A stretch of DNA of 64,000 bases, taken from assembly GCF_030013205.1 (NCBI RefSeq), contig NZ_CP122648.1; one strand, 5' to 3'. The position numbers and the translations under genes are program-made. Under the pieces are notes generated by a model. That model was not told the origin of the DNA and ran no database searches. It saw nothing but the letters and a program-made list of their open reading frames with translations. Below, piece by piece: positions 19,225 through 19,397 of this stretch (position 1 is the stretch's first letter; every line of letters begins with the position of its first letter). Source of the stretch: Escherichia coli (lineage in GTDB: Bacteria; Pseudomonadota; Gammaproteobacteria; Enterobacterales; Enterobacteriaceae).

Positions 19225-19397
19225 GTGAAGCCCCAGGAGCTTACATAAGTAAGTGACTGGGGTGAACGACAAATCCGCATGGAGCGGATTTGAACGCTGC
19301 TTGCAGCGGCCCTGTTAAGGGTGAGGCCCATGGATGGGCCGAATAACTCGCAGCCGCAGCACATGCAACTTGAAGTATGACGAGTATGGCAGGAGTG
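19225..19397. repeat. ERIC (enterobacterial repetitive intergenic consensus / IRU) element, long variant with internal insertion
   Basis: Contains ...ccccaggagcttacatAAGTAAGTGACTGGGGTGAacg... matching the ERIC core (ERIC2 primer AAGTAAGTGACTGGGGTGAGCG) and the distal gcagccgcagcacatgcaacttgaagtatgacg arm; a second copy is at 34444-34600. Confidence 0.75.

Follow-up and report, generated by a model that had tools for sequence, protein, structure and literature searches.

A long-form ERIC element with an internal four-hairpin module in a native hairpin of the Escherichia coli dxs-yajO spacer

The spacer between dxs and yajO in the stretch of Escherichia coli DNA analysed here (64,000 nucleotides, referred to below as the window) very probably holds a long-form ERIC/IRU element, which carries a module of about 78 nt in its right arm and sits at a TA dinucleotide within a native hairpin; this reading includes a proposed model of translational coupling and mRNA stability, set out below. 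ERIC/IRU sequences are non-autonomous miniature inverted-repeat mobile elements of enterobacteria, reportedly described by Sharples and Lloyd in 1990 and by Hulton et al. in 1991. The long ERIC at dxs-yajO is of this already-known kind and represents one more unannotated instance of it. The features of the site and of the related copies are collected in Table 1.

Table 1. Features of the dxs-yajO spacer, of the second ERIC copy in the window and of module copies in extracted loci
Feature	Position	Strand	Basis or remark
dxs coding sequence	17283..19145	+	ORF list; RefSeq annotation of identical/orthologous loci
Native hairpin, 5' arm (non-ERIC)	19152..19170	+	folds of three alleles; inverted repeat; present in empty-site strains
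Promoter-like match TTAACA-18-AATAAT	19169..19198	+	-35 native, -10 in ERIC left end; consensus match only
Long ERIC/IRU element	19185..19387	+	203 bp, one copy of the TA target duplication counted
ERIC left terminal inverted repeat	19187..19208	+	pairs with 19364-19385; inverted-repeat search, MFE fold
ERIC central core	19225..19268	+	both primer sites, core hairpin
Four-hairpin module	19269..19346	+	K-12 alignment; covariance model, 92.7 bits; covariation over 121 copies
ERIC right terminal inverted repeat	19364..19385	+	inverted-repeat search, MFE fold
Native hairpin, 3' arm	19382..19401	+	holds AGGAG; non-ERIC from 19388; unchanged in empty-site strains
yajO (aldo-keto reductase)	19403..20377	+	start as annotated in K-12 and long-allele strains
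Second long ERIC	34401..34603	+	203 bp, directly upstream of acpH (ATG 34605)
Module of second ERIC	34487-34563		
Module copies in extracted loci	L007 604-678; L140 501-583; L080 365-439; also L118, L126, L127, L060, L063, L073		

The element is intergenic and lies inside the dxs-yajO spacer of xseB-ispA-dxs-yajO, which is listed as one operon (PMC4421995); the dxs stop codon is a TAA at 19143-19145. Alignment with K-12 and with empty-site strains sets the boundaries, as positions 19185-19387 are exactly the stretch missing from two strains with an empty site (O157 and B2). The terminal inverted repeats measure 22 nt and are 77% complementary. Between them, the two primer sites of the core stand head to head, with 19225-19246 matching the complement of primer ERIC1R and 19247-19268 matching primer ERIC2, at 21 of 22 positions in each case (primer sequences from PMC3696847). 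An initial annotation of this DNA had named a long-variant ERIC here, and both the core and the long-ERIC identity are borne out by the primer sites, the terminal inverted repeats, the membership in a multi-copy family, the TA junctions and the existence of filled and empty sites. The extent given there has to be redrawn: a span of 19225-19397 omits 40 bp of the left arm and adds 10 native nucleotides including the Shine-Dalgarno sequence, and the distance from the right end to the yajO ATG (19403) is 15 nt instead of 5 bp. These last 15 nt are native, and the yajO Shine-Dalgarno sequence (AGGAG, 19391-19395) is thus native and outside the ERIC.

A chance likeness to the roughly 20-nt ERIC primer core, with the rest of the element missing, has a vanishingly small probability. 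The 19-mer AAGTAAGTGACTGGGGTGA occurs exactly twice in the 64-kb window (at 19247 and 34465) against 0.02 occurrences expected by chance, and the similarity extends beyond the core to the terminal repeats and to the exact filled/empty boundaries of a 125-bp and a 203-bp form. The second of these occurrences belongs to another long ERIC, which aligns with the first at 84% identity over its full length and has its insert at the same position. We therefore rejected chance resemblance and retained the reading as a long ERIC.

Comparison of strains revealed long, short and empty forms at one and the same site. The dxs-yajO spacer measures 54, 179 or 257 nt across E. coli strains, with 257 nt in the window, and the locus as a whole is 658 bp in the long, 580 bp in the short and 455 bp in the empty form. 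The short ERIC of K-12 (125 bp) occupies the same site and has arms identical to those of the window copy; positions 19270-19349 of the window (80 nt) take the place of the 2 nt AT in K-12. In K-12 and E. albertii the junctions read CA-TA-ERIC-TA-GC. The target-duplication picture at dxs-yajO is not perfectly clean, because the right-hand copy in the window is TG, not TA, and the empty sites also have TG.

To follow the three forms across the species, we used 5,426 complete E. coli genomes, in which an ERIC was scored as present when a site-spanning query was covered to at least 80%, and the long form was scored with a wider-flank query that only the long allele can cover to 80%. The site-spanning query was covered in 2,843 of the 5,426 genomes. 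The long form accounts for 122 of them (2% of genomes; among them strain 042, swine O139:H1 isolates and APEC O2-211), a count that replaces the 482 obtained with a 200-nt query, which had overcounted long alleles through matches to other long ERICs. The short 125-bp form, as in K-12, is found in about 2,720 genomes, and the site is empty in about 2,580, including O157:H7 and B2 strains. By megablast, the median number of places with ERIC-related copies is 6 per E. coli genome, and copies are also present in Yersinia, Citrobacter, Dickeya, Enterobacter and E. albertii. Since about half of the genomes are without the element, and many that bear an ERIC are without the module, dxs and yajO can function without either.

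The E. albertii type strain carries the long form at the orthologous site, where its ERIC is identical to that of the window at 199 of 203 positions (98%). By comparison, identity in the flanking coding DNA is about 91% overall and only about 77% at third codon positions, and the rest of the spacer has 6 differences in 54 nt. With the third-position rate as the expectation, the binomial probability of the ERIC conservation is 1.5e-17; with the rate over all sites it is 4e-5. Because the ERIC differs far less from E. albertii than its flanks do, the long form is either old and constrained or kept uniform by another process; the high conservation need not mean a benefit to the host, as gene conversion between copies or the element's own constraints could account for it. 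Flank haplotypes are mosaic among 10 E. coli strains, with empty alleles on both flank haplogroups.

We then considered the RNA into which the element would be built. The 5' arm of a native hairpin begins 6 nt past the dxs stop codon and pairs with 19382-19401, such that CTCCT at 19157-19161 pairs with the yajO Shine-Dalgarno sequence; this hairpin is shared by every E. coli allele and by E. albertii. The minimum free energy is -121.5 kcal/mol for the long form (z -8.7), -80.4 kcal/mol for the short form (z -8.8) and -28.1 kcal/mol for the empty site (z -6.1), the last being a stable hairpin by itself, and the base helix is identical in the predicted folds of all three alleles. In the long form, folding is stronger for the sense strand (z -8.7) than for the antisense strand (z -5.6). 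Partition-function calculations gave the Shine-Dalgarno sequence an unpaired probability of about 0 in every allele, and opening the region from the Shine-Dalgarno sequence to the AUG is predicted to require 16-20 kcal/mol in all of them.

In the model that we propose, an ERIC copy entered the pre-existing native hairpin in its apical part, at a TA, and would extend it to a long branched stem-loop, while the base helix that masks the Shine-Dalgarno sequence would stay intact. The ERIC is probably transcribed as intercistronic RNA, as dxs and yajO are listed in one operon. The position of the native hairpin past the dxs stop suggests translational coupling of yajO to dxs, in which ribosomes terminating at dxs would melt the 5' arm and so open the way to yajO translation. 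Since the native helix masks the Shine-Dalgarno sequence in all three forms, the predicted effect of the ERIC on yajO translation is small; the element would change coupling little, and its main effect, if any, would fall on the stability or processing of the operon mRNA. By analogy with Yersinia such an effect on stability is plausible, and we infer that it is probably small. According to the summaries of De Gregorio et al. 2005 given in PMC2229807, PMC3184786 and PMC10969869, co-transcribed Yersinia ERICs have orientation-dependent effects on mRNA levels via RNase E. As far as those summaries describe them, the Yersinia elements resemble the present one in being intercistronic, with a long hairpin beside a stop codon, and are co-transcribed, as the present one probably is too; the idea put forward there that ribosomes disturb the folding fits the dxs geometry, with a helix 6 nt past the stop. 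They differ in that, at dxs-yajO, the helix nearest to the stop codon is native and not part of the ERIC.

It is quite possible, although we do not favour it, that the ERIC is a selfish or neutral insertion that sits harmlessly in the hairpin loop with no effect on the operon, its conservation stemming from what the element itself requires or from gene conversion among copies. In favour of this, each of the three forms is common in healthy strains, the copy at acpH shows the same three forms, and the predicted masking of the Shine-Dalgarno sequence is the same with or without the ERIC. Against it, the near-identity to the E. albertii ortholog, when nearby silent sites agree at only about 77%, is hard to obtain without some constraint, and Yersinia ERICs, as the reviews cited above recount, do alter mRNA levels.

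A second alternative, which we consider distinctly improbable, is that the ERIC brings yajO a promoter of its own: the left end of the element, TAAATAAT, would supply a -10 box to a native -35 (TTAACA), and a transcript starting there without the 5' arm would free the Shine-Dalgarno sequence. The candidate agrees with the consensus at 10 of 12 positions, the region has 2 such sites against 0.4 expected in shuffles, and the -10 box is missing from empty-site alleles. However, the candidate is a consensus match only, the -35 of K-12 is weaker (TTAAGA), and dxs and yajO are listed as one operon. An extension of the YajO N terminus was also considered and rejected. The insert contributes an in-frame ATG at 19334 with no stop up to the yajO start, giving a mechanical ORF of 347 instead of 324 aa; this ATG lies inside hairpin 4 without a Shine-Dalgarno sequence, and RefSeq keeps the K-12 start in long-allele strains. 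We thus return to the long ERIC within a native hairpin as the preferred reading and turn to its insert.

The insert had been annotated as a single palindrome of about 70 bp. Its presence is confirmed, at the same place in both window copies; its form is that of four consecutive hairpins, with a folding energy of -39 kcal/mol for 84 nt. The junction, GGGGTGA(N)(N)G followed directly by ACAAATC, recurs in the two window copies, at three further E. coli loci and in other genera, and the insert occupies the same internal site in the long ERICs of Yersinia, Citrobacter, Dickeya and E. albertii. In a MAFFT alignment of 30 module copies, 95.4% of cells pair as predicted, compared with 28-42% for slid partners. 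A model-guided alignment of 121 copies gave 96.3% pairing cells and changes on both sides in 21 of 25 pairs, and none of 500 shuffles reached it on any pairing or covariation measure; this alignment was fitted to the structure, and for most copies the search pattern had preset six pairs of hairpin 1. The strand shown is favoured by a G-U pair that often closes hairpin 3.

The copy at acpH allowed the exchange of the module to be compared at two loci. There, the ERIC is long in 139 genomes, short in some and empty in most. Between the long and the short allele of each locus the ERIC arms are 100% identical, and the difference consists of 79-80 nt against a dinucleotide, which is AT at dxs-yajO and AG (exchanged for 79 nt) at acpH; the swap junctions fall at 19269/19270 and 19349/19350, and at 34486/34487 and about 34565, respectively. 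Strain HYM1 is long at dxs-yajO and short at acpH. A single deletion between short direct repeats, leading from the long to the short form, is excluded at both loci, as 2 nt differ at the junction. With unchanged arms and a dinucleotide swapped for 79-80 nt at both loci, the module may have been gained or lost in situ. We also observed that the right end of the acpH ERIC abuts the start codon, so that the sole Shine-Dalgarno-like sequence of filled alleles (GAAGGA) belongs to the ERIC.

A scan with the module pattern, using one genome per species, returned at least 120 stretches. Among the matches listed, the module stands in the right arm of ERICs in many copies from Yersinia, Citrobacter, Dickeya and others; a sequence variant of it stands in the ERIC left arm, sometimes beside a right-arm copy; it occurs in rrn operon trailers of Citrobacter and Enterobacter; and it occurs in repeats of non-enteric Gammaproteobacteria, some of which are clearly different palindromic elements. 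In Yersinia-like genomes the left-arm module is a sequence variant in the same orientation as the right-arm module, and three of the extracted loci (L032, L092 and L107) carry both. Three further loci (L098, L114 and L115) look like recombinants of two modules in which the ERIC core has been lost.

In E. coli, the rrn-type module lies about 84 nt past the last 5S gene of rrnD and is present in 3,982 genomes, in a median of two places each. The spacer between the rrnB T1 and T2 terminators used in cloning vectors is presumably a site of the same module. Local alignment of the ERIC module with the rrn-trailer module scored 55, against 13.5 +/- 2.2 in shuffles, and this likeness does not extend past the module: the flanks score like shuffled sequence (P about 0.9), for which reason we rejected the rrn trailer as a degenerate ERIC. 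The two settings thus share the four-hairpin module, whereas the trailer flanks are unrelated to ERIC and hairpin 4 has another sequence of the same shape.

Several known RNA and DNA families were considered for the insert. An origin from tRNA or tmRNA is unsupported, as ARAGORN found nothing in 19000-19500 and there was no Rfam tRNA match; the 10-mer AAGGGTGAGG of the insert is one that we take to occur also in the anticodon/variable region of thrV. Identity with BoxC/PIT was rejected: BoxC consists of triplex-forming purine/pyrimidine blocks of about 56 bp (PMC4666352), and the insert contains no such blocks. In the Rfam search no family reached its threshold for the module. The family RF02902 (AaHKsRNA22, an Aggregatibacter sRNA) scored 23.8-28.6 bits for four ERIC inserts, below its gathering score of 39.8, and a literature search for AaHKsRNA22 returned no paper. 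The inserts share with RF02902 a full-length alignment, the order of the four hairpins and the linkers (ACAAA..UUUGAAC, GAG and GA); they differ in that the score stays below gathering, so that membership is not established, and in that the rrn-type copy has no match at E<=1.

The strong covariation, which supports a real structure, and this weak full-length match to an sRNA family could be taken to mean that the roughly 78 nt of the insert serve yajO alone, as a cis-regulatory RNA (such as a riboswitch-like leader) or an sRNA, and are not part of a repeat. We regard this as very unlikely, given where else the module is found: upstream of the unrelated acpH and preT, near yehK, antisense between topB and an Hsp70-family gene, in rrn trailers and in the repeats of other species. 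Moreover, just 2% of E. coli carry it at yajO, and no family in Rfam attains its threshold. A broader proposal is that the four-hairpin module of about 77 nt is an independent unit, conserved in Gammaproteobacteria as a structured RNA or structured single-strand DNA and possibly present in Pasteurellaceae as an sRNA; we put this forward tentatively and consider it rather unlikely as a whole.

Set beside known systems, the dxs-yajO element has in common with ERIC/IRU the core, the imperfect palindrome, the terminal inverted repeats, the TA junctions, the multi-copy distribution and the filled and empty sites, and differs in nothing essential, the window copy being 203 bp long compared with about 125-127 bp. 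Insertions of about 70 bp in ERICs are the subject of Sharp 1997 ('Insertions within ERIC sequences') and of Cromie, Collins & Leach 1997 (both cited in PMC3696847); going by the titles cited there, the notes of 1996-97 dealt with ERIC deletions, insertions of about 70 bp and RNA folding. To the extent that titles tell, the 1997 insertions correspond to the insert seen here, which measures about 78 nt, folds well as RNA and always stands at one internal position. The Correia MITEs of Neisseria likewise exist in a long (about 155 bp) and a short (about 105 bp) form; they are co-transcribed with their neighbours (PMC2229807). They resemble the ERICs in having two size classes that differ by an internal segment, but are unrelated in sequence, and their segment contains an IHF site where the ERIC module is a four-hairpin cluster. 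The module outside ERIC, and the three forms at two loci, were not found in the accessible literature; the ERIC notes of 1996-97 may cover some of this ground.

Two further features were noted along the way. The ORF that follows yajO (20608-22179) encodes a 523-aa pentapeptide-repeat protein (Pfam PF00805, E 2e-15), so that the pentapeptide-repeat ORF about 1.2 kb downstream, to which the initial annotation refers, is real. Alignment of the E. albertii contig to the window stops at 20376 and resumes at 22371, which leaves an unaligned gap of about 2 kb in the window and about 1.9 kb in E. albertii with no BLAST match reported; judged by this comparison, the stretch with the pentapeptide-repeat ORF looks variable. 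In E. coli strain D8, another long ERIC near yehK is followed, about 400 bp downstream, by an OrzO-P antitoxin RNA with a full score (91.5 bits; locus L004, 1113-1186), an association that looks incidental.

The three spacer lengths at dxs-yajO affect ERIC-PCR patterns and the engineering of the dxs operon. In engineered strains yajO can substitute for dxs, which makes the suggested coupling of yajO to dxs relevant. Were the module to prove an entity of its own, it would be a functional RNA motif that is portable, or else a nested mobile element with hairpin repeats as its targets, and the '70-bp insertion' of ERICs would become a widely shared structured element.
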